From an uncultured delta proteobacterium (GTDB taxonomy: Bacteria > Desulfobacterota > Desulfobacteria > Desulfobacterales > JAFDCJ01), in assembly GCA_963769935.1 (NCBI GenBank), contig CAVYNY010000009.1, positions 128,001 through 192,000 of the forward strand: a DNA stretch of 64,000 bases, given 5' to 3'. Positions 11,215-60,343 of this stretch are shown here, one piece after another. Position numbers and translations under genes: made by a program. The notes beneath the pieces were generated by a model that was not told the DNA's origin, ran no database searches, and saw only the letters and a program-made list of their open reading frames with translations. Numbering within the stretch: the first letter of the stretch is position 1; each line of letters begins with the position of its first letter.

Positions 11215-12411
11215 TCAGACCGGCGCCTCCATACAGATATCCTCGAGAGGAATGCAATGGCTGAATCGGAATTTTTGATCTGCGGCGGGCCTGTTTGGTG
11301 CACGGCAGACGACCGACACAACCGGCATCCGGCGGTGTTTGAAAAACGCCAAAATTTCCCGGAACGACTCGCCGGATTCATAGGACAAGCTGAAACCGGT
11401 GGTCCCCCAGGGCAGTTTCAAGCCGCGTCTTAGAAAATCGGCCATGTCTGCCAGCGGTGACATCTGCAGCCGGGCCAGTGTCTCGAGGATTTTCGGAACC
11501 TGCCGCGGCCCTCGGCCGATCGGCAAAGCATTTGACCCATCGCCGTTCATCTTCCCGTTTGTCACCAAGCCCACGGCAAAACCCGAACGATCGAAGCGGA
11601 CCGCAGCCGAAGCCGCAACTTCGAGAATTTTTTCAAATTCAGCGTGCGCCCCTTGTTCAGCGAAGCGGGCGACATCAACCATCAGCAATATTTTTTCCTG
11701 GGCGGCAGGCTCGCAGATTTTTTCCTGCAGCTGCCTGAAGCGGGCACTGGCTTTCCAGTGGATATACCGCGCCGGCCGCCCGCTCTGATACTGCCGGGTG
11801 CCGTAAACATAAACGGGATCTTCGATCGGACTTTTGGCTCCGGGAACACCGAAAAAATCGCGACGCGGCAAAGCAAGCGGCTTTAACGGAATCAGACGGG
11901 GATAGACAATGACATCGTGAAAGGATGCTGTTTTTTGCTTTTTCGAATAAAATCCAAAAAGGTCCCCAACGCGCAGTTCCGCGGTTGAGATTTGGTGCAC
12001 TCCGCGCCGCAGTGCCGTCAAATGCCACTGAAAATCGGCCTCCTGATACCAGAGCAGGCTGCATTCTTTTTTAGACGATGCAGCGTTCTCGGCCGACAGG
12101 AAAGACTTTGAGAAAACAACCGACAATTGGACCAGCACCGGCAGCACCTTTGCATTTTGAACCCGGGTGGAAAGGGTCAGCGTTTCTCCCGGAAAAACCC
12201 GTTGTTTGTTCAATACGCTTTCGAAGTGGATTTTGGCCGGGCTCAATCGGCTCCAGCAGTTGGTCCCCGCCATAATTGCGATGACAACCAGGCCCAGCAC
12301 CGTCAAATCGCGTTGATCGTTCAGCAGGGCTATAAAAAGAAAAAGGACCACAAAAATCTGTATCAGGGGGATGATTAAAGCAGTCGGCAGTCTATCTTGA
12401 TTGGTGTCCAT
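11215..12411 (-). CDS. DUF58 domain-containing protein (MoxR partner)
   Basis: RRGVH..GDLFGF, VIVYP and RQYQSG..RYIHWKASAR motifs; the 5' extension in the ORF track is repeat-derived. Confidence 0.9.
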   Translation of the reverse strand: MDTNQDRLPTALIIPLIQIFVVLFLFIALLNDQRDLTVLGLVVIAIMAGTNCWSRLSPAKIHFESVLNKQRVFPGETLTLSTRVQNAKVLPVLVQLSVVFSKSFLSAENAASSKKECSLLWYQEADFQWHLTALRRGVHQISTAELRVGDLFGFYSKKQKTASFHDVIVYPRLIPLKPLALPRRDFFGVPGAKSPIEDPVYVYGTRQYQSGRPARYIHWKASARFRQLQEKICEPAAQEKILLMVDVARFAEQGAHAEFEKILEVAASAAVRFDRSGFAVGLVTNGKMNGDGSNALPIGRGPRQVPKILETLARLQMSPLADMADFLRRGLKLPWGTTGFSLSYESGESFREILAFFKHRRMPVVSVVCRAPNRPAADQKFRFSHCIPLEDICMEAPV

Positions 12412-12419
12412 AATAAAGA

Positions 12420-12790
12420 GTTCATCGTTGATAGTTGATAGATGATCGTTGATAGTTGATAGTTCATAGTTCATAGCTGATAAAAGTGGCTGGAAAGCTT
12501 GAAAGGGAAGAAGAGAAGAAGGTGAGGATAAGAAGATCAGAAACTCAGAAACTCAGAAAAAAACAGGCATTGCTTCCCTTCTACCTTATAACTCAACAAA
12601 CTCAACAAACTGAAACCCTTTTTCCTTTCACCTTTAGCCTTTTACCTCTATCCCTTTTTCTATCAACTATGAGCTATGAACTATCAACTGGCGCGTTCGC
12701 GCCGCCTTCAACCTTTATCTGCTTCAGCCTTATTCAACTCATTAAACTCAACAAACTCAACAAACTCAACAAACTATCAAACTCTATCCG
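12420..12790. repeat. Composite intergenic tandem-repeat block (7-mers and 9-mers around a conserved core)
   Basis: gttgata/gttcata arrays, gaag-rich 9-mers, core GAAAAAAACAGGCATTGCTTCC, then aactcaaca, cctttag and tatcaac/tatgaac arrays. Confidence 0.92.
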
Positions 12791-12808
12791 CCTGTTACCT
12801 GCCCCAAA

Positions 12809-13744
12809 TCACTCGCCCACCGGTACGGCTGTCCCGCCGATAATATCTTCGACAACCTGTTTGGTTTCAGCGCCTCGCAGCCGTTCTTCTTCTTTGAGAA
12901 TCAGGCGGTGGCACAATACCGGACCGGCCAGCTGTTTGACGTCGTCGGGCAAAACAAACGCGCGTCCCTGCAAGGCGGCCAGTCCCTGCGCGGCCCGCAT
13001 CAAACCGAGCGTTGCCCGCGGACTGGCCCCGTACTGCAGGGCGGAATGACCGCGCGTGCCCCTGACAATATCGGCGATGTAAGCCCGCACGGGCCCGGAG
13101 ACGCGTATTTGCCGGCGGGCTGCCTGCAGCTCAACAAAAACCTCCGGTTGGATGACGGGTCCAAGTTCTTCGAGCGGATCTTTTTCCTGGAAACGTTCTA
13201 AAATCGTAATTTCTTCCGCGCGCTCCGGATATCCCAGGTCGATTTTTAACAGAAACCGGTCCAGTTGGGCTTCAGGCAGGGGAAAAGTCCCCTCAAGTTC
13301 AATGGGATTCTGGGTTGCAATTACAAAAAACGGAGAGGGCAGCCGATACGTCCGGCCGTCAACCGTCACCTGCCGCTCCTCCATGCTTTCCAACAGGCTG
13401 GACTGGGTACGAGGAATTGTGCGATTGATTTCGTCGGCCAGAAGAACATTGGTCATGACCGGTCCGGGTTGGAACTCAAAACTACCCGCCTGCCGGCTGT
13501 AGACATTAAAGCCCGTTATATCCGACGGCAGCAGGTCCGGTGTGAACTGCACCCGTTTAAAGGCCCCGCCGATGCTTCGGGCCAGGCATTTGGCCATCAG
13601 GGTTTTCCCCATACCGGGCACGTCCTCGAGCAGGACATGCCCGTCGGCCAGCAGGGCGACCGTGAGCATCTCGACACACTTTTTTTTGCCGACGATCACG
13701 CGCGCAACATTGTCGATGATTTCCTGACACAGATTGAAATCCAA
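12809..13744 (-). CDS. moxR: MoxR-family AAA+ ATPase
   Basis: GHVLLEDVPGMGKT, RVQFTPDLLPSD, LADEINR and NPIELEGTFPLPEAQLDRF motifs. Confidence 0.95.
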   Translation of the reverse strand: MDFNLCQEIIDNVARVIVGKKKCVEMLTVALLADGHVLLEDVPGMGKTLMAKCLARSIGGAFKRVQFTPDLLPSDITGFNVYSRQAGSFEFQPGPVMTNVLLADEINRTIPRTQSSLLESMEERQVTVDGRTYRLPSPFFVIATQNPIELEGTFPLPEAQLDRFLLKIDLGYPERAEEITILERFQEKDPLEELGPVIQPEVFVELQAARRQIRVSGPVRAYIADIVRGTRGHSALQYGASPRATLGLMRAAQGLAALQGRAFVLPDDVKQLAGPVLCHRLILKEEERLRGAETKQVVEDIIGGTAVPVGE

Positions 13745-15909: not shown

Positions 15910-16206
15910 ATGAAGCCGTATTCAGAATCAGAAATAAAAAATATGCTTTCACGGTTGTACTGGGATGTCAAGGTGCATCCTGATCAACTGTATGCGCTCT
16001 TGAAGGGTGAAACAAAAAAGGTCGGACACATTGATATCGCCAACCTTTACCATCGAATGTTGATGACATTTGACTGGTACACTATCCTGAGAATCTTTCC
16101 GCGAGAAAAGCTGTCGGAACTTTTGGATGAGGCCGTGATTGAACGAATTCGTTTTAAAGATCTGAAAGATAAGTACCACTATGCGAGAGAAAGCATTCTA
16201 TCATAA
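15910..16206 (+). CDS. Small helical protein, putative antitoxin partner of the AbiEii-like toxin
   Basis: LSRLYWD motif; overlaps the downstream nucleotidyltransferase gene; AT-rich two-gene unit. Confidence 0.7.
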   Translation: MKPYSESEIKNMLSRLYWDVKVHPDQLYALLKGETKKVGHIDIANLYHRMLMTFDWYTILRIFPREKLSELLDEAVIERIRFKDLKDKYHYARESILS

Positions 16207-16861
16207 ATTATACGCCCTGCAGGATCAATTAATGGAGTTAATTCAGAAGCAGGACGTCGATTTTTACCTTACCGGCGGTACTGCTTTGGGAAGGTTCTAT
16301 TTGAACCACCGACTTTCCGACGATCTAGACTTCTTCGTTAACCAGGCTGCCGATTTCAAGAAGCAGGCAGAACGCTCTGTGGCCGCCATTAGGAAAAGCG
16401 GGCTGCAAATCGAAATCGGCACAGCATCTGATTCGTTTCTCAGAATTGCGGTTTTGAGAGACGAGATATCAATGAAAATAGATTTTGTTAATGATGTCAT
16501 CTACCATTACGGCGGATTTGAAGCGGCGGATTTTTTCCCTAAAATTGACAGTTGGAGGAATATTCTTTCAAATAAATTGTGCGCAATCAGTCGATCAGAA
16601 CCAAAAGACATAGCCGATTTGCTGTTCATCGCCAAAAACTTTTCTTTTGAATGGCCCGAAATCATAGAAGAAGCAAAAAACAAAGATCTATGGGTCGATC
16701 CGCTGGATGTTTCACGAATTATACAAGAGTTTCCGATAAACTTGTTTGATACCGTAAAATGGATGAAGCCGGTTGACCGGGAAACACTGGGCAATGAACT
16801 CAAGCAGATGCATGATGATATTTTCTACGGACAATCGAATTCCCTGGCTGGTTTGAGGTAG
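16181..16861 (+). CDS. Nucleotidyltransferase AbiEii/AbiGii toxin family protein
   Basis: FYLTGGTAL.RFYLNHRLSDDLDFF, KIDFV and NKLCAI.SRSEPKD..DL motifs. Confidence 0.9.
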   Translation: MREKAFYHKLYALQDQLMELIQKQDVDFYLTGGTALGRFYLNHRLSDDLDFFVNQAADFKKQAERSVAAIRKSGLQIEIGTASDSFLRIAVLRDEISMKIDFVNDVIYHYGGFEAADFFPKIDSWRNILSNKLCAISRSEPKDIADLLFIAKNFSFEWPEIIEEAKNKDLWVDPLDVSRIIQEFPINLFDTVKWMKPVDRETLGNELKQMHDDIFYGQSNSLAGLR

Positions 16862-30933: not shown

Positions 30934-31171
30934 AGGTTTCAGTGTTCAGGTGTCAACCCAGCCGCCGGCCAAAACAACGGCCGGTCTGATCGAAAAAGAA
31001 ACATAATAGTTCACCGCAGAGCCCGCCGCCTCTGGCCCATAGGGCCTACGCCCCGGTGGGAGAACGCCGAGAAAGAAAAGTTAAATTAATCTCCGCGCTC
31101 TCTGCGCTCTCAGCGGTGAGACACTTCGTAAAAATGGCATCGAATTTAAGAAAGTTTCATATGAGGTGTCA
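30934..31171. repeat. MITE/REP-like element family A, copy 2
   Basis: Termini match 3711-3973 in inverted orientation; internal CACCGCAGAG.../...CTCAGCGGTG inverted repeat. Confidence 0.9.
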
Positions 31172-31179
31172 GGCGGATA

Positions 31180-31545
31180 AAGGTTGTTAGTTTCTTGTGT
31201 TTATTGAGTTAAAATGTATAGAAGGTTAAAGGCCAAAGGAGAAAGGCTGGGAGGATGCGAGTTATGCGGCGCACGTCGCATGGCACATGGCTAAAAGTAT
31301 AGGGTATAAGGTATAAGGTGTAAAGTGTAAGGTTTGAGGTTTGAGGCAAAAAGAGAAAGGAAGAAATGCCGGTTCATTTCTTAGCTTCTTATTTTCTTAT
31401 CTTCTTCTCTTCTTTCCTTCTCAGCTTCTCAACTTCTTTCTTTGTCACCTTCTTTCCTTTCGAGCCTTCCAGCCACTTCGTCTCAGCCATGACCTATCGA
31501 CTATCAACTATGAACTATAAACTATGAACGATGAACTATCGACGG
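31180..31545. repeat. Composite intergenic tandem-repeat block
   Basis: G-rich 7/9-mers, core GGAAGAAATGCCGGTTCATTTC, then C/T-rich 9-mers and aactatg heptamers running into the dppC start. Confidence 0.9.
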
Positions 31546-32411
31546 CAGACGAAGTTGTAGCGGAACCCGCCAAAGCATGGGGGCAGCGTTGGTTTGAATT
31601 TTCGCGGCACAATCCCACCGTTGTCGGCGGTGCGGCCGTTTTAGTGGCCATGACGCTCCTGGCAGTGCTGGCTTCTTATATCGCTGTTGATCCGATTGAA
31701 ATCAACCCGATCGAGAGGCTGAGACCGCCGTCGCTCGAGCATCTGTTCGGCACGGACAACCTAGGTCGCGACATCTTCAGCCGAACGCTGTATGGCGGGC
31801 GGATCTCACTGACCGTCGGATTGAGCGTCGCCGTTTTAACCTCACTGATCGGCCTGTTTATCGGGCTGGTTTCCGGATACATCCGCGCCGTTGATGCCAT
31901 TATGATGCGGATTATGGACGGATTGATGGCCATTCCTGAAATTTTGCTGGCCATCTCGCTGATGGCCATCAGCAGTGCTTCCGTCAAAACTGTAATCATC
32001 GCCATCACCATCCCGGAAGTGCCGCGAATGGCCCGCCTGGTGCGCAGCATCGTAATCACTCTCCGCGAGCAGCCTTTTATCGAAGCAGCTGTCTCCATTG
32101 GAACCGGTCTTCCCAAAATTCTTTTCCGCCATGTGCTGCCCAACACCATTGCACCGTTGCTGGTGACCGCAACCTACGCTTTCGCCTCGGCGGTCATCAC
32201 CGAATCTCTGCTGGGATTTATCGGCGCCGGAACGCCGCCGGAAATTCCCAGCTGGGGCAACATCATGGCGGATGGACGGACCTATTTCGAAATCGGCTCC
32301 TGGATCATCTTTTTCCCGGGGGCCTTTTTGACGCTGACGGTGCTGGCCGTAAACATTATGGGAGACGGGCTGCGGGATATGCTGGATCCGCGGCTTTCGC
32401 GGCAGTTGTGA
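31524..32411 (+). CDS. Peptide ABC transporter permease (DppC/OppC-like)
   Basis: HLFGTDNLGRDIFSR, RHVLPN, PSWG and GDGLRDMLDPR motifs. Confidence 0.93.
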   Translation: MNDELSTADEVVAEPAKAWGQRWFEFSRHNPTVVGGAAVLVAMTLLAVLASYIAVDPIEINPIERLRPPSLEHLFGTDNLGRDIFSRTLYGGRISLTVGLSVAVLTSLIGLFIGLVSGYIRAVDAIMMRIMDGLMAIPEILLAISLMAISSASVKTVIIAITIPEVPRMARLVRSIVITLREQPFIEAAVSIGTGLPKILFRHVLPNTIAPLLVTATYAFASAVITESLLGFIGAGTPPEIPSWGNIMADGRTYFEIGSWIIFFPGAFLTLTVLAVNIMGDGLRDMLDPRLSRQL

Positions 32412-32539
32412 GTTCAGAGGTTCTGGGGGTTCCGAGGTTCTGGGTTCAGGGTTAAGCCTAACCGCCAGTTTCCTGGCTTCCCAGCTTCCAAGCTTCTGTT
32501 GACCGGTAACGAATAACCAATAACTGATAACAAAACATA

Positions 32540-33568
<1,029 letters not shown>

Positions 33569-33575
33569 TAATATG

Positions 33576-33885
33576 GAATGGATTCTATTATATTTTTTTA
33601 TTCAGACAGGATAAACAGGATTAGCAGGATTATTTTTTTGTCTTCATCAATTTCCGCAAGAAATTGATGAAACACAATCCACCTTCGGTGGAAAGCAGAA
33701 ATTCAGTATGGCCGGCATTCTTTCTTGAATTGTTTGCCCAAAAATTTTTGATACCTTATCGCTTAATAGCTACCTCGCAGAAGGCGATTGAGTATTCTTT
33801 GTTTCATCCGGAAACAAAGAATAAAAAAATTCAATAAATCCTGTAAATCCTGTCTAAAAAAAATAAAATATAAAGGAATCCATTC
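33576..33885. repeat. AT-rich MITE-like element with long terminal inverted repeats (family B)
   Basis: GAATGGATTC..TATTTTTTT..AGACAGGATAAACAGGATT versus AATCCTGTAAATCCTGTCT..AAAAAAATA..GAATCCATTC. Confidence 0.8.
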
Positions 33886-33941
33886 AATAATGATATCTTT
33901 TGTCTAGTATAAAGCATCATACAGAGCCAGGATTAACATCG

Positions 33942-34958
33942 ATGCCTAACATTGCTACTCATACGTCCGACATGCCGGTCGAAGAAATACTGGCGGTCTC
34001 TAACCTCAAGAAGTATTTTCCGGTCCGGGGCGGTATCCTGATGCGCACGATCGGCCAAGTTTTGGCGGTGGACGGCGTGTCCTTTGATATTCGGCGGGGC
34101 GAAACCCTGGGCCTGGTCGGAGAGAGCGGCTGCGGCAAGACCACCGTCGGCAAAACGGTTTTGAGACTCATCGCACCCACCGCCGGGGAGATCCGCTTGA
34201 AATCACGAGATATCACCCATCTGGAGGGCAGCGAGCTGCGGTCTGTGCGGCGGGAAATGCAGATGATTTTTCAGGACCCGTATTCATCATTGAATCCGCG
34301 CATGTCGGCCCGCGACATTGTCGCGGAGCCGATGGAAAATTTCGGACTGGCAAGCGGCAGGGAAAAAAGAGCACGAGCGGCGACCTTGCTGGAGCGCGTC
34401 GGTTTTCGCGCCGGCCAGATGGCCAAGCGGCCGCATGAATTTTCCGGCGGGCAGCGCCAGCGCATCGGCATTGCCAGGGCCCTGGCGTTGAATCCGAGCC
34501 TGATTGTCGCCGACGAGCCGGTTTCCGCCCTGGACGTATCCATCCAGGCCCAGGTAATCAATCTTTTAGTGGACCTGCAAAACGAATTCAATCTGGCCTT
34601 CTTGTTTATCTCCCACGATCTGGCGGTGGTCAAACACATCAGCCACCGCATCGCCGTCATGTATCTGGGAAAGATTGTTGAACTCGCAGACAAAAAGGAC
34701 TTGTTTGCAGCGCCTCTTCACCCGTACACGGAAGCTCTGCTGGGGGCCATACCGATTCCCAACCCGCGGGCGGACCGCAAGGTAATCATACTGGAAGGAG
34801 ATATCCCCAGCCCGATTACCCCGCCGCCGGGCTGCCGTTTTCACACCCGCTGCCTCTATGTTTTTGACCGCTGCCGGATTGAAGAGCCGCCGTTAATTGA
34901 AGTGACGGCGCGACATTGGGCCGCGTGCCATTTGCGTCAGCCGCAGGAGAGTTCATAG
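33942..34958 (+). CDS. Peptide ABC transporter ATP-binding protein (DppF-like)
   Basis: [31 protein letters not shown] and GCRFHTRC motifs. Confidence 0.95.
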
Positions 34959-35140
34959 CTCATAGGTCATAGCTGATAGTTCGGAGTTCATAGTTTGTAG
35001 TTGATAGATCATAGTTGATGGGGGTGAAAAGGAGAAAGGCAAAAGGAAAAAGGTCAAAGGAAAAAGGAAAAAGGGTGTTAGCTTGTTGAGTTTATTGTGT
35101 TTGTTGAGTTGAAAAGGATAAAGGTGAAAGGTATAAAGAA
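34951..35140. repeat. G-rich tandem 7/9-mer arrays
   Basis: agttcat/agctcat, aaaggNN and gtttgttga arrays; the first array supplies the dppF stop. Confidence 0.9.
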
Positions 35141-38046: not shown

Positions 38047-39426
38047 ATGCCAAAATATATTGCAGAAAATGATCTATCCCCCATTGAATCCCTGCTTGCC
38101 GACCGACATGACGGCTGGCGGATTGGGGAACTAGAGAAGGCCCTTGAGGATCAGGGCCTACCCTTCAATCGCCGTACTTTGCAGCGACGGTTGGCCCGGC
38201 TCGAAAAAACAGGACGCATCCTGATTGCCGGTGTGGGGCGGGCCACTCGATATCTGCCCGTTGTCGCCGCCGAAAAATCGACTGAAGCCGATGGCGGTAT
38301 CTTCCTTTCGGCTGATGCAAAGGAGGTACTAAGTCGGATCAGCAGGCCTTTATCTGCCCGCCCACCGGTTGGTTATCAAAGAAAATTCACCGATAGCTAT
38401 CAACCGAATGCAACTTGGTACCTGCCGGCGGCAATACGAAGCCACCTGATGGCTGTTGGCCGGCGCATGGGTGTCGACTATGCCGCCGGAACTTACATGC
38501 GGCAAATTCTTGACAGGCTTCTGATCGATCTTTCCTGGGCCTCCAGCCGGCTGGAAGGAAATACCTACTCGCTCCTTGAAACCGAAAGACTCATCGCGTT
38601 AGGGGAAGCAGCGGCTGGAAAAACACCCTTCGAAACCCAGATGGTGCTCAATCACAAAGCGGCTATCGAGTTCCTCGTAGATGCGGTAGATGAAATCGGG
38701 TTTGATCGACGAACTATTCTTAATCTTCATGCCCTGCTTTCGGATAATTTGCTGGGTGATCCGTCCGCATCAGGGCGACTGCGCGCTATCCCTGTTGGTA
38801 TCGGAAAGTCTGTCTACGAACCGCTGGCGGTGCCGCAACTCATCGATGAAATCTTCAGTCAAATACTGGATACTGCTGTTGCCATATCCGATCCATTCGA
38901 ACAGGCATTTTTTGTCATCGTACACCTGCCTTACCTCCAACCGTTTGAGGATGTCAATAAACGGGTTTCGCGGCTGGCGGCGAATATTCCCTTCATTCGC
39001 CACAACCTGTGCCCGCTGTCCTTCATGGATGTACCGGAGGATCTTTATGTCAACGGACTGCTGGGTGTTTACGAACTTAACCGTATTGAGCTTATGAGGG
39101 ACGTATTTGTTTGGACCTATGAACGGTCGTGCAATCGTTATCAGGTCGTACGGCATACTTTGGGGGAGCCCGATCCATTTCGGCTGCACTACCGGAAAGC
39201 CTTAATCGATTGCGTGGGTGAGGCAGTCCGGCAGGTTGGCCGGGGGAATGCTATTGATACCGGAGAAGTCCTTTTAAAGTCAGCCAAGGACCTGGTGCCG
39301 GAAAATGACCGTGAACACTTTCTCAAAATCGCTAAAGAAGAAATCGCCGCATTGCACGAGGGAAACTATGCCCGTTTCCGGCTCCGCCCCAGTGAATTTA
39401 AAGACTGGCAAAAACGAAAGATCTAG
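38047..39426 (+). CDS. Fic family protein with N-terminal winged HTH
   Basis: RRTLQRRL..L HTH, SSRLEGN inhibitory-type motif and variant Fic motif YLQPFEDVNKRVSR. Confidence 0.9.
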   Translation: MPKYIAENDLSPIESLLADRHDGWRIGELEKALEDQGLPFNRRTLQRRLARLEKTGRILIAGVGRATRYLPVVAAEKSTEADGGIFLSADAKEVLSRISRPLSARPPVGYQRKFTDSYQPNATWYLPAAIRSHLMAVGRRMGVDYAAGTYMRQILDRLLIDLSWASSRLEGNTYSLLETERLIALGEAAAGKTPFETQMVLNHKAAIEFLVDAVDEIGFDRRTILNLHALLSDNLLGDPSASGRLRAIPVGIGKSVYEPLAVPQLIDEIFSQILDTAVAISDPFEQAFFVIVHLPYLQPFEDVNKRVSRLAANIPFIRHNLCPLSFMDVPEDLYVNGLLGVYELNRIELMRDVFVWTYERSCNRYQVVRHTLGEPDPFRLHYRKALIDCVGEAVRQVGRGNAIDTGEVLLKSAKDLVPENDREHFLKIAKEEIAALHEGNYARFRLRPSEFKDWQKRKI

Positions 39427-45157: not shown

Positions 45158-47341
45158 ATGACTGAAATCAGGCGATCTTATTGCGGTTTATGTCATCCCC
45201 GTTGCGGTCTCCTTTTGGAAATGGAAAACGGCCGGATTGTCAAAGTGAAAGGGGACCCGGATCATCCCATATCAAAGGGACGAATTTGTCAGAGAGGCAG
45301 TTTGATGGCTGATCATGTGGATCATCCGGATCGCATCAATTACCCGCTCAAGCGCAAGGGCGGCAAGGGAGCCGGACAATGGCAGCGCCTGACATGGCAT
45401 CAGGCCCTGGATGAAGTCGCTAACAAGCTAGGGGATCTTCGCGAACACTACGGCGCTGAGACCCTGGCTTTTACGCATGGCACCAAGCGAACCTATCACT
45501 GGGATGAACGCCGATTTTTCAACCTGTTCGGGTCACCCAATATCTGCGGAGCAAACAATATCTGCATGTGCCCGAGCCAGGCGGTAGAATTTGCAACTTA
45601 TGGCGGCTTCACGTGGGGTGATGCGATGCATACCAAATGCGTGGTTTTATGGGGGCATGCACCATCCAAGTCCAGCCCCATCGGCCTTTATCCCATGATC
45701 CTTCAAGCCCAGAAAAATGGGGCGCAACTTATCGTGGTCGATCCCCGCCGAATCCCGGAGGCGGAAAGAGCGGATATGTGGCTTCCCATACGGCCCGGGA
45801 CCGATGTGGCCTTGATGCTCGGATGGCTGCGGATTATCATCGAAGAAGACCTTTATGACACCGATTTTGTAGCAAACTGGACGATCGGATTTGAAGATCT
45901 CAAGACGGCCGCCGCCGAATATACGCCTCAAAAGGTTGCCGAGATTACCTGGCTGACACCCGAACAGGTGGTGAGTTCAGCCCGCTGCTACGCCACGACC
46001 AAACCGGCCATGATCACCTGGGGTTTCGGCCTGGACAAGCAGGGCGTCAACGCGACCCAGGCGGCAAGGGCCAGATGTTGTCTCAGAGCGGTGACCGGCA
46101 ATTTGGATATCCAGGGCGGGGAGCCGCTGGGCTGGAACGAACCTGTCGGCAGAATCATCGGCGACGAGGAAGTAGAATTCAACACTGCGCTTTCAAATGA
46201 GCAGCGGGCCAAGCAGTTGGGTGCCGATCAATATCCTTTCTTCGGTTTTCCGGGGTGGTCGCGCAACAGGGAAGCCAATCGCCGCCTGCCCATAGAATAC
46301 ATGCATCCACCCCATGCCGACATGACCTGTGTCGCCCATGCGCGAAGTGTGTTTGACGCCATGATTACCGCCAAACCCTATCCGGTTAAGGCGGCCATCT
46401 CGGTAGCCAGCAATCCGTTGCTTTCCCTGCCGAATGTGCGCCATACCTACGAGGCATTGAAGCAGTTGAAACTTTATGTTGTCGGTGAATTTTATCTCAC
46501 GCCCTCGGCCGCTCTGGCAGATTATGTTTTTCCGATATGTTCCACAGTCGAGACGACCGAATTGTGGCTGACCCCCATGTTCTGTGTGGCTTGTCCCCGC
46601 GGTGTTGAGCCGCTGTATGAACGGCGCAACACCTATGATTTCTGGCGCGGCCTGGCGCTGAGACTTGGGCAGCAAGATGACTGGCCATGGAAGACGGTGG
46701 ATGATGTGTGGGACTACCGGCTCGCTCCGGCAGAACTTACCTTCAAAAAGCTGCTTGAACAAAACGGCCTTTTCGGAAGGCCGCAATACAAGCGTTATGA
46801 AAAATTTGGTTTCGGTACACCGTCAGGTAAAGTTGAGCTTCGCTCCACAACCTTCGAGCAGCTGGGTTGCGAACCCTTGCCGGTATATCGTGAACCTTTT
46901 CACAGCCCCTTGGGTAATTCGAAACTAGCCGAATCCTTCCCCCTGGTTCTCATTTCCGGGAGCCGGTTTATGCCGATGTACCAATCCGAACAGCGCCAAA
47001 TTCAGGCGGCCAGAAAAAAAAGACCCGACCCGCTTCTGACGCTTCACCCGGATACGGCGGAAGCCCTTGGCCTGGCTGAAGGTGAATGGGTCAAGGTGGA
47101 ATCACCTCAGGGGAGCATTCGGATGCGTCTTCATCTTTCCGATATGGTTGACCGGCGGATGGCAGATGCAGATCATGGGTGGTGGTTTCCCGAACGTCGC
47201 GAGCAGGACCCCGAACTATTTGGAGTTTTTGAATCAAACGCCAATATTCTCTGCCCTGACGGATCGGAATTTTGCAGTCCGGAGATCGGAAGCTGGCCGC
47301 ATTCGGCGCTGCTGTGCCGGGTGAGCAAAGAAAGAAGCTGA
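45158..47341 (+). CDS. Mo/W-bisPGD oxidoreductase, acetylene hydratase-like clade
   Basis: CGLCHPRC..IC [4Fe-4S] motif, RRFFNLFGSPN, QLGADQYPF, PYPVKA, TPSGKVEL and HGWWFPE motifs; 727 aa, no Tat signal. Confidence 0.88.
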   Translation: MTEIRRSYCGLCHPRCGLLLEMENGRIVKVKGDPDHPISKGRICQRGSLMADHVDHPDRINYPLKRKGGKGAGQWQRLTWHQALDEVANKLGDLREHYGAETLAFTHGTKRTYHWDERRFFNLFGSPNICGANNICMCPSQAVEFATYGGFTWGDAMHTKCVVLWGHAPSKSSPIGLYPMILQAQKNGAQLIVVDPRRIPEAERADMWLPIRPGTDVALMLGWLRIIIEEDLYDTDFVANWTIGFEDLKTAAAEYTPQKVAEITWLTPEQVVSSARCYATTKPAMITWGFGLDKQGVNATQAARARCCLRAVTGNLDIQGGEPLGWNEPVGRIIGDEEVEFNTALSNEQRAKQLGADQYPFFGFPGWSRNREANRRLPIEYMHPPHADMTCVAHARSVFDAMITAKPYPVKAAISVASNPLLSLPNVRHTYEALKQLKLYVVGEFYLTPSAALADYVFPICSTVETTELWLTPMFCVACPRGVEPLYERRNTYDFWRGLALRLGQQDDWPWKTVDDVWDYRLAPAELTFKKLLEQNGLFGRPQYKRYEKFGFGTPSGKVELRSTTFEQLGCEPLPVYREPFHSPLGNSKLAESFPLVLISGSRFMPMYQSEQRQIQAARKKRPDPLLTLHPDTAEALGLAEGEWVKVESPQGSIRMRLHLSDMVDRRMADADHGWWFPERREQDPELFGVFESNANILCPDGSEFCSPEIGSWPHSALLCRVSKERS

Positions 47342-47520
47342 GAAGCTGGGAAGCTGGGAAGGTGAGAAGGTAAGAAGAGCAGAAGATCAGAGGATCAGAG
47401 GATAAGAAGGTGGGAGGTTGGGAAGTTGAGAAGGTGAGAGGTTGCGAACCTTTTTTCAACTCAATCAACCAATCAACCCAATCAACCCAATCAACCCAAT
47501 CAATTATGAACTACAAACCT
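47335..47520. repeat. 9-mer tandem arrays (G-rich, then C-rich)
   Basis: gaagctgg/gaaggtga arrays followed by caacccaat x3. Confidence 0.92.
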
Positions 47521-56748: not shown

Positions 56749-56897
56749 GAACAACAGAGAACAGAGGACAGAGGACAGATAAGAAGTTGAGAAGGTGAGA
56801 AGATCAGAAGGTAAGAAGTTGGGAAGTTGAGAAAAAAACCGGCATTTCTTCCTTTAGCCTTTCACCTTTAGCCTTTCACCTTTAGCCTTTCACCTTC
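56749..56897. repeat. Composite tandem-repeat block between convergent genes
   Basis: agaggac and gaagttga arrays, core GAAAAAAACCGGCATTTCTTCC, then cctttag/cctttca array. Confidence 0.92.
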
Positions 56898-57366
56898 ACC
56901 TTTCCCTACTTGCAAGACGCGGATCAAATCGGTAATTAATCGTGCTGCCGATGGTAATCTTTGCAAAATCCGGATGGTGCGGGCTGAGCAGATAGTTGTA
57001 TTCCTCAGGGATCACAACACTGGGCACTTTTAATACTGCAGATTTTCCTTGCTTAACCCAGCGATCCCCGATCGCTTTGATGGATGGTGCAGCAGGCCGG
57101 CTGTTCCAATCGTTTGGAAGAATGTCCAAAGGCAAGTCCATGATCAGGTTCGCCGGAATATGTACCGGGATTCTGACATATGCCTCCAAAAGCTTGGGAC
57201 CGGGAAGGTTTACCACCATTTCGATGGATGCTAAGGCAATGCTGCCGGCCGTGTATACCATGATGGTTCCCTTGCTGTTCCAGCGGCCGCCGCGAAGCCG
57301 CGCGCCTTCGCCGGAAAAAGCGTCGTCTTGGTATCTTGCCTGCACGATTCTCCACGCCGTTATCAT
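56896..57366 (-). CDS. RES domain toxin (NAD+ phosphorylase, MbcT/ParT-like)
   Basis: AWRI, FSGEGA..GGRWN, E, VPSV..PEEYNYLL.P.HPDF and FDPRL motifs. Confidence 0.93.
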   Translation of the reverse strand: MITAWRIVQARYQDDAFSGEGARLRGGRWNSKGTIMVYTAGSIALASIEMVVNLPGPKLLEAYVRIPVHIPANLIMDLPLDILPNDWNSRPAAPSIKAIGDRWVKQGKSAVLKVPSVVIPEEYNYLLSPHHPDFAKITIGSTINYRFDPRLASRER

Positions 57367-57767
57367 CAGGTGAAGATCCCATGTTCGATGCGGCCTAACA
57401 GGTCGTCCACTTCCTGAGCTCCAAGCTCAGTCTCGGCGAACTCCAGCGGTGGTATATCTCCCAGCGCCCATGCGGGTTCCTTGAGCCACTTGCGGCCCAT
57501 TTTCTTGTCTTCAAACACCTCCACTGCTCGGTCATACAGCCGCGCAATTCGGAAGATTCTTTCGGATTCTTCAAAGGTCATCCGACCGGATTTTTTTCGT
57601 CGCGCCAACGTGCTGATCGCAATGTTCAGCGTCTTGGCAAGCGACTTTTCGGACAATTCCAGGTTTTTGCATAGCCGGTCAAAAGCCTTCACGGACAATC
57701 CCTCCTTGATCTTGGCGATTAGCTTGGCACTGCTTTGCGGCTGAAGACCGATGGAGACCCCATACAT
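57366..57767 (-). CDS. Xre/MbcA/ParS-type antitoxin (DUF2384)
   Basis: STLARRK HTH; ESERIFRIARL..A.EVF and WL..P..ALG..P..ELGAQEV..LLGRIEHG motifs. Confidence 0.93.
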   Translation of the reverse strand: MYGVSIGLQPQSSAKLIAKIKEGLSVKAFDRLCKNLELSEKSLAKTLNIAISTLARRKKSGRMTFEESERIFRIARLYDRAVEVFEDKKMGRKWLKEPAWALGDIPPLEFAETELGAQEVDDLLGRIEHGIFT

Positions 57768-57892
57768 GACAATTGCCCTCCTGTTGCGTTTTTTATATGG
57801 CAATAATATAATTACCAAATGACAACTTGTAAAGCGAACAAAATAGTATCTGTTAATATATTGCTTCCGCTTTTACCCACCCGTTAATCGGC

Positions 57893-60100: not shown

Positions 60101-60104
60101 GCTT

Positions 60105-60343
60105 GTTTTGTTAATTGAGTTTGTTGCGTTTGTTGAGTTTGTTGTGTCGATTGAGTTGATGGAGTTGATTGGAACTGCCAGGTTTTTTAACCAACTTCTC
60201 AAACAAGCCTCATTACTTAATCGACGATCGAGCTATCGCAGCCTTTTATCTAGCCTTTGGCGCTTCACTTTGCGCCATTGACACCTGAACCTAACTGATA
60301 ACCTATAACCGTTCTTCTCTTCTTATTTCATCTTCTTCTCTTC
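60105..60343. repeat. Tandem 9-mer and C/T-rich arrays between A2M and pbpC
   Basis: gtttgttga array and ttcttctct array. Confidence 0.85.

Follow-up and report, generated by a model that had tools for sequence, protein, structure and literature searches.

A recurrent 22-nt core as the probable inherited centre of a small lineage of gene-less composite repeat elements in a Desulfobacterales genome

The analysis of a 64,000-nt stretch of a Desulfobacterales genome (the window; positions 128001-192000 of contig C9 in an 8.0-Mb, 41-contig assembly listed as 5.4% contaminated) indicated that a recurrent 22-nt core is probably the inherited, non-repetitive centre of one small lineage of gene-less elements, likely copied mostly to nearby intergenic sites. 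The core is more likely a mark of that lineage than a functional site. An initial annotation of the window had reported this conserved core in three composite repeat blocks, and all three instances were located (Table 1), those at 12.5 and 31.4 kb presenting 2 mismatches each. Matches with up to 3 mismatches were obtained in 0 of 100 shuffles; the three window cores are real and not the product of chance.

Core copies and the elements that carry them

A search of the complete genome returned 1, 2, 4, 5, 11 and 46 core matches at up to 0, 1, 2, 3, 4 and 5 mismatches, respectively. All five matches with up to 3 mismatches lie between arrays, at arm switch points, and the 6 extra matches at 4 mismatches have no arrays beside them. 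A degenerate-pattern search of the genome identified six core copies, located at 89, 122, 141, 159 and 185 kb of C9 and at 359 kb of C22. C30 holds a weaker look-alike at 48.6 kb. Five of the genome's six copies hence fall inside 96 kb. Each core marks the turn from a G-rich tandem-repeat arm to a C-rich arm, and all six are intergenic. They occupy the kinase/regulator, MoxR/DUF58, dppB/dppC and M23/RES spacers, the spacer between an opine dehydrogenase gene and the next gene, and a site after an aminotransferase gene, and both orientations of the core relative to adjacent genes are represented.

Read in its own orientation, the core can be divided into an octamer-like unit, a stretch of about 6 nt and, in inverted orientation, one or two further octamer-like units, and about 10 of 12 positions of the inner core are invariant over 7 copies. 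Inspection by eye revealed that 8 of the 12 occurrences of the exact inner 12-mer in the genome have no adjacent arrays. A public contig spans positions 12466-12773 with 1 difference, and the run from which it originates may be the source sample itself. Apparent skips within the element in public contigs were left out, since they came from one run, had short sides and involved many repeat-bearing contigs of other organisms. Small-share runs were likewise set aside as evidence of habitat.

The modules of the window elements (Table 1) match the initial annotation in part. The GAAG-rich arrays, described there as 9-mers, have a measured period of 8. The CCTTT-type heptamers that were said to adjoin each core follow it directly at 56.8 kb only, with a 9-mer array coming first at 12.5 kb and other heptamer types at 31.3 kb. 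The sequence shared between the 12.5- and 31.4-kb blocks was confirmed as a 12-mer junction, present on the reverse strand in the former and on the forward strand in the latter. The second core copy contains a possible 6-bp stem (31363-31368 with 31375-31380) with a 6-nt loop, and the outer heptamers of its G-rich arm overlap the start of dppC. The predicted starts of dppC (31524-31560) and possibly of DUF58 (12410-12474) overlap outer heptamers, and repeat DNA may therefore encode N-terminal residues of these proteins. The solo arm of the same lineage has neither a core nor a partner arm, and lies immediately before a sulfatase gene.

Table 1. Core copies, arms and host genes in the window (window coordinates).
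Feature	Positions	Strand	Description
Core copy 1	12556..12577	+	MoxR-DUF58 spacer; switch from G-rich to C-rich arm in a gene-less element of ~390 nt
Copy 1, G-rich arm	12419..12555	+	Outer heptamers 12419-12482, 12-nt junction 12484-12495, inner octamer array
Copy 1, C-rich arm	12578..12800	+	9-mer array 12590-12611, CCTTT-type heptamers, AACTATG heptamers
Copy 1, C-rich arm, further modules			Short GC-rich palindrome, second 9-mer array 12736-12784
Core copy 2	31359..31380	-	dppB-dppC spacer
Copy 2, G-rich arm	31381..31545	-	Octamers 31378-31454, shared junction 31467-31478, outer heptamers 31489-31543
Copy 2, C-rich arm	31175..31358	-	Several heptamer modules and a 9-mer remnant
Core copy 3	56831..56852	+	Between convergent M23 peptidase and RES genes
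Copy 3, G-rich arm	56753..56830	+	Heptamers from just past the M23 stop codon, then octamers
Copy 3, C-rich arm	56853..56904	+	CCTTT-type heptamer array
Solo arm, same lineage	34945..35140	-	24-nt 9-mer junction in common with two core elements outside the window
MoxR-type AAA ATPase gene	12809..13744	-	Upstream of copy 1; host gene
Peptide ABC permease gene (dppC-like)	31524..32411	+	Downstream of copy 2; host gene

Several other features were observed in and around the window. A MITE-like element of ~228 nt at 30945-31172 abuts the core element at 31.2 kb. It has 35 copies of at least 200 nt with 75-100% identity, which are dispersed in the genome and mostly bounded by AGGTGTC-type heptamer units, and relatives of it are present in congeners. 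Core-less mirror-image or composite elements were found at 32412-32496, 33560-33900, 47333-47503 and 60103-60340, the one at 33.6-33.9 kb presenting inverted 9-mer arms and an interior of ~200 nt. Toxin-antitoxin-type genes in the window include AbiEii (16181-16861), Fic (38047-39426) and RES-Xre (56896-57818), with the RES gene terminating at the C-rich arm of core copy 3. At positions 1-912 of the window, at C9 115.5-117.5 kb and at C14 146.4-148.4 kb, three related pieces of group II introns (90-99% identical) are embedded in composite repeat arms or abut them, and the two C9 pieces, 12 kb apart, present similar junctions with the host arm. In addition, near-identical RT-bearing elements of ~2.1 kb adjoin PF01797 (Y1 transposase) matches at C11 462-465 kb and C17 220-223 kb, apparently as introns inserted in a transposase gene.

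Mirror-image elements and their local clustering

Short-period arrays number 1490 in the genome, at a density of 186 per Mb that falls to 0.6 per Mb in shuffled sequence. In 133 cases a G-rich array was followed by a C-rich array within 150 nt and in 2 the order was reversed, which indicates that the blocks are mirror-image elements. At least 124 such gene-less elements, with many different centres, were detected by a conservative scan that missed 3 of the 6 core elements. These three were added by coordinates, yielding the 127 centres used for centre families, core-cluster draws and arm pairings, and are absent from the k-mer clustering test and the small-family distance test. The core is present in 6 of the 127 elements, and 17 of the 127 centres fall within a 200-codon open frame, compared with 75% of the genome.

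The repeat units define 19 data-derived families with lengths of 7, 8 and 9 nt. Their nesting order is biased but not fixed, with 55 of 65 ordered family pairs following the majority, against a mean of 44.8 and a maximum of 54 in 500 shuffles. The fixed architecture initially suggested for the blocks is hence recognisable as a genome-wide bias in nesting order, but modules have been gained, lost and swapped among the six core copies, which differ in their ends and module content. The innermost arm families are alike in 45 of 101 elements, and two unit families are mostly self-paired (27 and 10 elements). The octamer family beside the core nearly always opposes a different family, being self-paired in 1 element among the pairings listed. 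The arm-calling procedure, which overlooked some core elements with octamers opposite CCTTT-type heptamers, identified this layout in 13 elements, 12 of them without the core. The core is not needed for such a layout.

The 127 centres comprise one dispersed family of 41 members, eight small groups and 55 singletons. Members of the large family (e.g. C9 125391, 200057 and 274705) present mostly GAAGATT-type heptamer arms, an inner inverted repeat and an AT-rich variable loop.

The core elements cluster along the chromosome: only 2 of 200000 random draws brought five of the six cores into a span of 100 kb. When the test was confined to scan-detected elements that do not belong to the 41-member family, 11 of the 22 pairs with a common centre were no more than 100 kb apart (0.64 expected; maximum 5 in 5000), and 10 of 20 such pairs still were with the core elements removed. 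The mean within-contig distance of centre-sharing pairs is 35 kb, against 105 kb, with 0 of 5000 permutations as low, and this clustering within contigs indicates that mixed-strain contigs are not the explanation. An independent k-mer test on all 124 elements found 11 of 63 pairs to be near one another, against 1.6; in all these counts, pairs inside one family are non-independent and overstate the number of events. The 41-member family is unclustered: of its 161 pairs, 3 are no more than 100 kb apart, against 4.7 expected, which implies that local copying is not the sole route. This dispersed family may move by a different route. A second case of local sharing was observed in genome G022, where two elements with a common centre lie ~1.3 kb apart in the flanks of hemW.

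Descent of the core elements and competing explanations

The core elements share descent, as evidenced by their arms. The 12-nt left junction has exactly 2 exact copies in the 8.0-Mb genome, those of the 12.5- and 31.4-kb elements, and the 24-nt right junction has 3. The presence of unique arm junctions common to several copies points to copying. The copies at C9 122 kb and on C22 present a 30-nt exact match right after the core and cores that differ at 6 of 22 positions in register, which indicates that the core is preserved no better than the arms. The similarities of left and right arms are uncorrelated (rho 0.06, Mantel p 0.43, n = 7 copies), and the nearest left arm to that of the 12.5-kb element belongs to the 31.4-kb element and the nearest right arm to the 122-kb element. 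Left and right arms thus look reassorted, but with only 7 copies a fast turnover could give the same pattern. In a 95%-identical strain, the 89-kb copy occupies the same site with an identical core and exactly two more octamer units. This documents slippage in unit count and upholds the initial view of these blocks as modular elements with variable unit counts, and not as simple microsatellites.

Occupancy of the host sites turns over between genomes. The core was not found at up to 2 mismatches in 60 relatives, including 22 congeners with assemblies 77-97% complete in which repeats are often unassembled, and the degenerate-pattern search of the 22 congeners returned 0 cores. Among 13 MoxR+DUF58 loci in congeners, seven are more distant, with a MoxR identity of 68-70% (they may be paralogues), and have spacers of 3-4 nt. 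In the three closest (80-85%) the spacer is longer and its repeat content is different, and three have other spacers. The kinase/regulator spacer is 12 nt long in 2 of 2 congeners, the element of core copy 3 was found in 0 of 12 M23 loci in relatives, two of which carry other repeat elements, and the C22 site has different repeat content in each of three genomes. At the site orthologous to C9 122 kb, genome G015 presents a ~1-kb gene between inverted 9-mer and heptamer arms, a possible cargo other than a four-helix-bundle gene. The only empty alleles found are ~70% identical, too distant to place the ends of an insertion or to recognise a target duplication.

A single core with 1 mismatch and the same right junction was identified after hemW, a gene named from sequence alone, in CP070694.1, another Desulfobacterales genome. 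At the hemW site, another element is common to our genome and one congener, and a third element is present in a second congener. The hemW block of CP070694.1 is 83-88% identical to that of our genome, above the congeners (70-81%), whereas at two other loci the identity between these two genomes is 72-77%, at or below that of the congeners. Lateral exchange of the hemW block would be the simplest reading of these identities. Scans of larger collections used one exact degenerate pattern, with which more diverged cores would be missed, and returned 0 matches in viral contigs, 5 in metagenomes (1 true element and 4 matches without arrays) and 2 in genomes (1 true element).

Arrays of the same kind also flank genes encoding four-helix-bundle proteins (PF05635, the 23S rRNA intervening-sequence protein), which are putatively Avd-like. 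The genome contains seven such genes, six of them located between inverted arrays as judged by eye. These cassettes and the core elements have the same unit families and the same polarity of G-rich and C-rich arms, but the core elements are gene-less and their arms are composite and asymmetric. No PF05635 gene is present at the centre of a core element, all 7 matches lying elsewhere in the genome. Across the genus, 70 of roughly 160 PF05635 matches were sampled, mostly the best-scoring ones, and an arm could be assigned to this genome's array families at 38 of the 70 loci. Where both arms could be called, the same unit family was found on both sides in 20 of 20 loci. On the protein tree, unit-family labels require 19 changes, against 36.3 when shuffled, and the octamer family flanks four related proteins, which group with support 77/93 and include one protein of this genome, encoded at 30.6 kb of contig C19. 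Since kin share labels, the tree pattern shows co-inheritance only, and not recognition.

Core-like 12-mers were absent from the 200-260-nt flanks of 30 four-helix-bundle loci. The possibility that the core is a remnant of the inner flank of a cassette was rejected, with look-alike 12-mers detected in the wider flanks of 5 of 70 loci, none of them octamer-armed, a count close to chance (about 3, estimated by hand). No cassette with a core at its inner edge was found, and collapse of a cassette is hence only a possible origin. The two GxxExxY matches in the genome showed no clear short-period arms by eye.

Taken with the clustering, these observations suggest how the lineage may have formed. 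The interior of an octamer-armed element or of a four-helix-bundle cassette would have collapsed to a tip in which about 6 nt separate an octamer-like unit from one or two inverted ones. Unable to slip, this tip would persist while the arms gain and lose whole units. New copies would arise mainly when arms of the same family in nearby elements undergo ectopic recombination or gene conversion, a process that could also swap arms and replace the element at an occupied site, with the core acting as a passive homology patch at most. Lateral gene transfer would carry elements between co-occurring species. First entry into an empty spacer of 3-12 nt lies outside this proposed mechanism.

The initial annotation had put forward a protein-binding or recombination site as a role for the core. 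The notion of a sequence-specific site bound, nicked or recombined by a trans-acting enzyme that seeds or joins arrays could account for the location of all five close matches at arm switch points, for the near-invariance of the inner core and for the 1-mismatch copy in a Desulfobacterales genome whose genes are mostly 72-77% identical to ours. A dedicated site is nonetheless unlikely, given that the core occurs in so few of the mirror-image elements and in 0 of 22 congeners, that the same arm layout is mostly found without it, that its conservation is no better than that of the neighbouring arm and that most exact inner 12-mers lack arrays. The foreign copy adjoins the 83-88% identity block, which transfer fits better than constraint. 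The search for a co-occurring enzyme yielded no recombinase, nuclease or RT directly beside any of the six copies, and the neighbours identified, all but one flanking gene on the second contig, are housekeeping, transport or toxin-antitoxin genes. The nearest RT to a core is an intron fragment about 5 kb away, and none of the 11 PF01797 matches in the genome is near a core. It is very unlikely that the core operates instead as the tip of a functional mRNA hairpin, selected in operon spacers for processing, pausing or stabilising transcripts. The elements do sit in operon spacers and the 12.4-12.8-kb element folds better than shuffles (z -3.57), but the other two window elements do not (z -0.72 and -0.08), and the consensus stem enclosing the core is weak (-2.5 kcal/mol), with 0 of 11 pairs compensatory. 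Both core orientations relative to genes occur, and an Rfam search of the window returned no match. The core was also rejected as a terminator or sigma-70 promoter, none having been called at 56.6-57.1 kb, where copy 3 was scanned.

Two further explanations concern how the copies came to lie together. The region could have been acquired as one block from an element-rich donor, with no local copying; mobile-type genes are present in it (AbiEii, Fic, RES-Xre, a transposase fragment and group II intron pieces), and a block near contig position 19 kb was apparently exchanged with another core-bearing genome. Yet the region's genes have different closest relatives, the putative partner genome has one core and other centre families cluster too, on four other contigs, all of which makes acquisition as a block quite improbable. 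Alternatively, the four-helix-bundle proteins might bind the RNA of their cognate repeats and enlist an RT of host or intron origin, with template switching building mosaic arms and inserting copies near a transcribed donor. The association of unit family with protein clade, the strict polarity and mosaicism of the arms, and the location of three related group II intron pieces within or next to such arrays, including two in the cluster region, are in line with this model. We nevertheless consider it highly improbable, since the tree pattern is that of co-inheritance among kin, no RT gene adjoins a core copy and introns may simply target hairpin-rich spacers. Copying of an inherited centre among nearby elements is the explanation that we favour.

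Relation to known repeat systems and significance

Short unique sequences associated with heptamer arrays have a possible counterpart in cyanobacteria, where Elhai et al. reportedly described in 2008 small dispersed repeats (SDR) of 21-27 nt and STRR heptamer arrays, with SDR possibly moved by recombination between flanking repeats. The core resembles an SDR in its length, in being short and unique, and in its association with heptamer arrays. It differs in that an SDR is reported to move alone into new contexts, whereas the core was never found without arms, which all five matches with up to 3 mismatches carry, and has six copies only. By this analogy, the cyanobacterial SDR is perhaps the closest precedent.

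The core elements resemble both REPINs and the convergent repeat pairs of Xanthomonas, yet fail membership of both classes, and of MITEs as well. They lack the constant terminal inverted repeats of MITEs, and no near-identical full-length copies exist among the six. In the accessible text of the report on Xanthomonas GGGAATC and Nostoc GGGGA(T/C)T repeats, these form intergenic short-period arrays, with 70-75 convergent pairs on opposite strands that have hairpin or cruciform potential and lie close to the neighbouring gene (PMC4692102). The elements reported here stack units from 19 families, their arms are often unlike and their centres form small local lineages, none of which is described in that text (PMC4692102). 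A single unit on both arms, as in the Xanthomonas type, is not the rule here, even the innermost families being alike in fewer than half of the elements. REPINs are presented, in the portion of the source available, as gene-less extragenic inverted repeats with a variable spacer that spread within genomes, with types tied to a nearby protein gene and doublets described as randomly distributed (PMC3116915). The strongly biased arm order makes the elements described here REPIN-like extragenic inverted doublets, but their arms are tandem arrays of 7-9-nt units and not palindromic REPs, their small families are clustered and the partner gene is PF05635 where REPINs have RAYT.

The TAACTGA repeats of the Beggiatoaceae, known from a sediment bacterium, likewise form numerous intergenic heptamer arrays that frequently lie beside start codons, and according to the accessible text are almost all direct arrays of one unit, with one inverted set reported (PMC4679880). 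The core elements are inverted and composite, in contrast to these direct arrays (PMC4679880). No description of composite arms, centre lineages or a PF05635 link was found in the open literature, and the terms 'heptamer', 'four helix' and 'inverted repeat' do not occur in the main text of preprint 10.64898/2026.10.21.760802, which concerns non-coding sequence space.

A broader and doubtful conjecture is that sediment Desulfobacterales harbour an undescribed multi-family mobile system, in which each four-helix-bundle clade would recognise its own 7-9-nt unit. Gene-less derivatives would join unlike arms at their centre and spread by distance-limited, possibly RNA-templated copying, with local lineages acting as chromosome barcodes.

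Intergenic arrays of the heptamer type have long been noted, and left unexplained, in many bacterial genomes, and unique centres make them testable. The 22-nt core matters little as a functional site and more for the local mosaic spread that it brings to light. Taken as lineage marks, the centres show distance-limited spread, likely arm exchange, same-site replacement and probable lateral transfer. These patterns of spread constrain any mechanism and tie gene-less arrays to specific four-helix-bundle clades.
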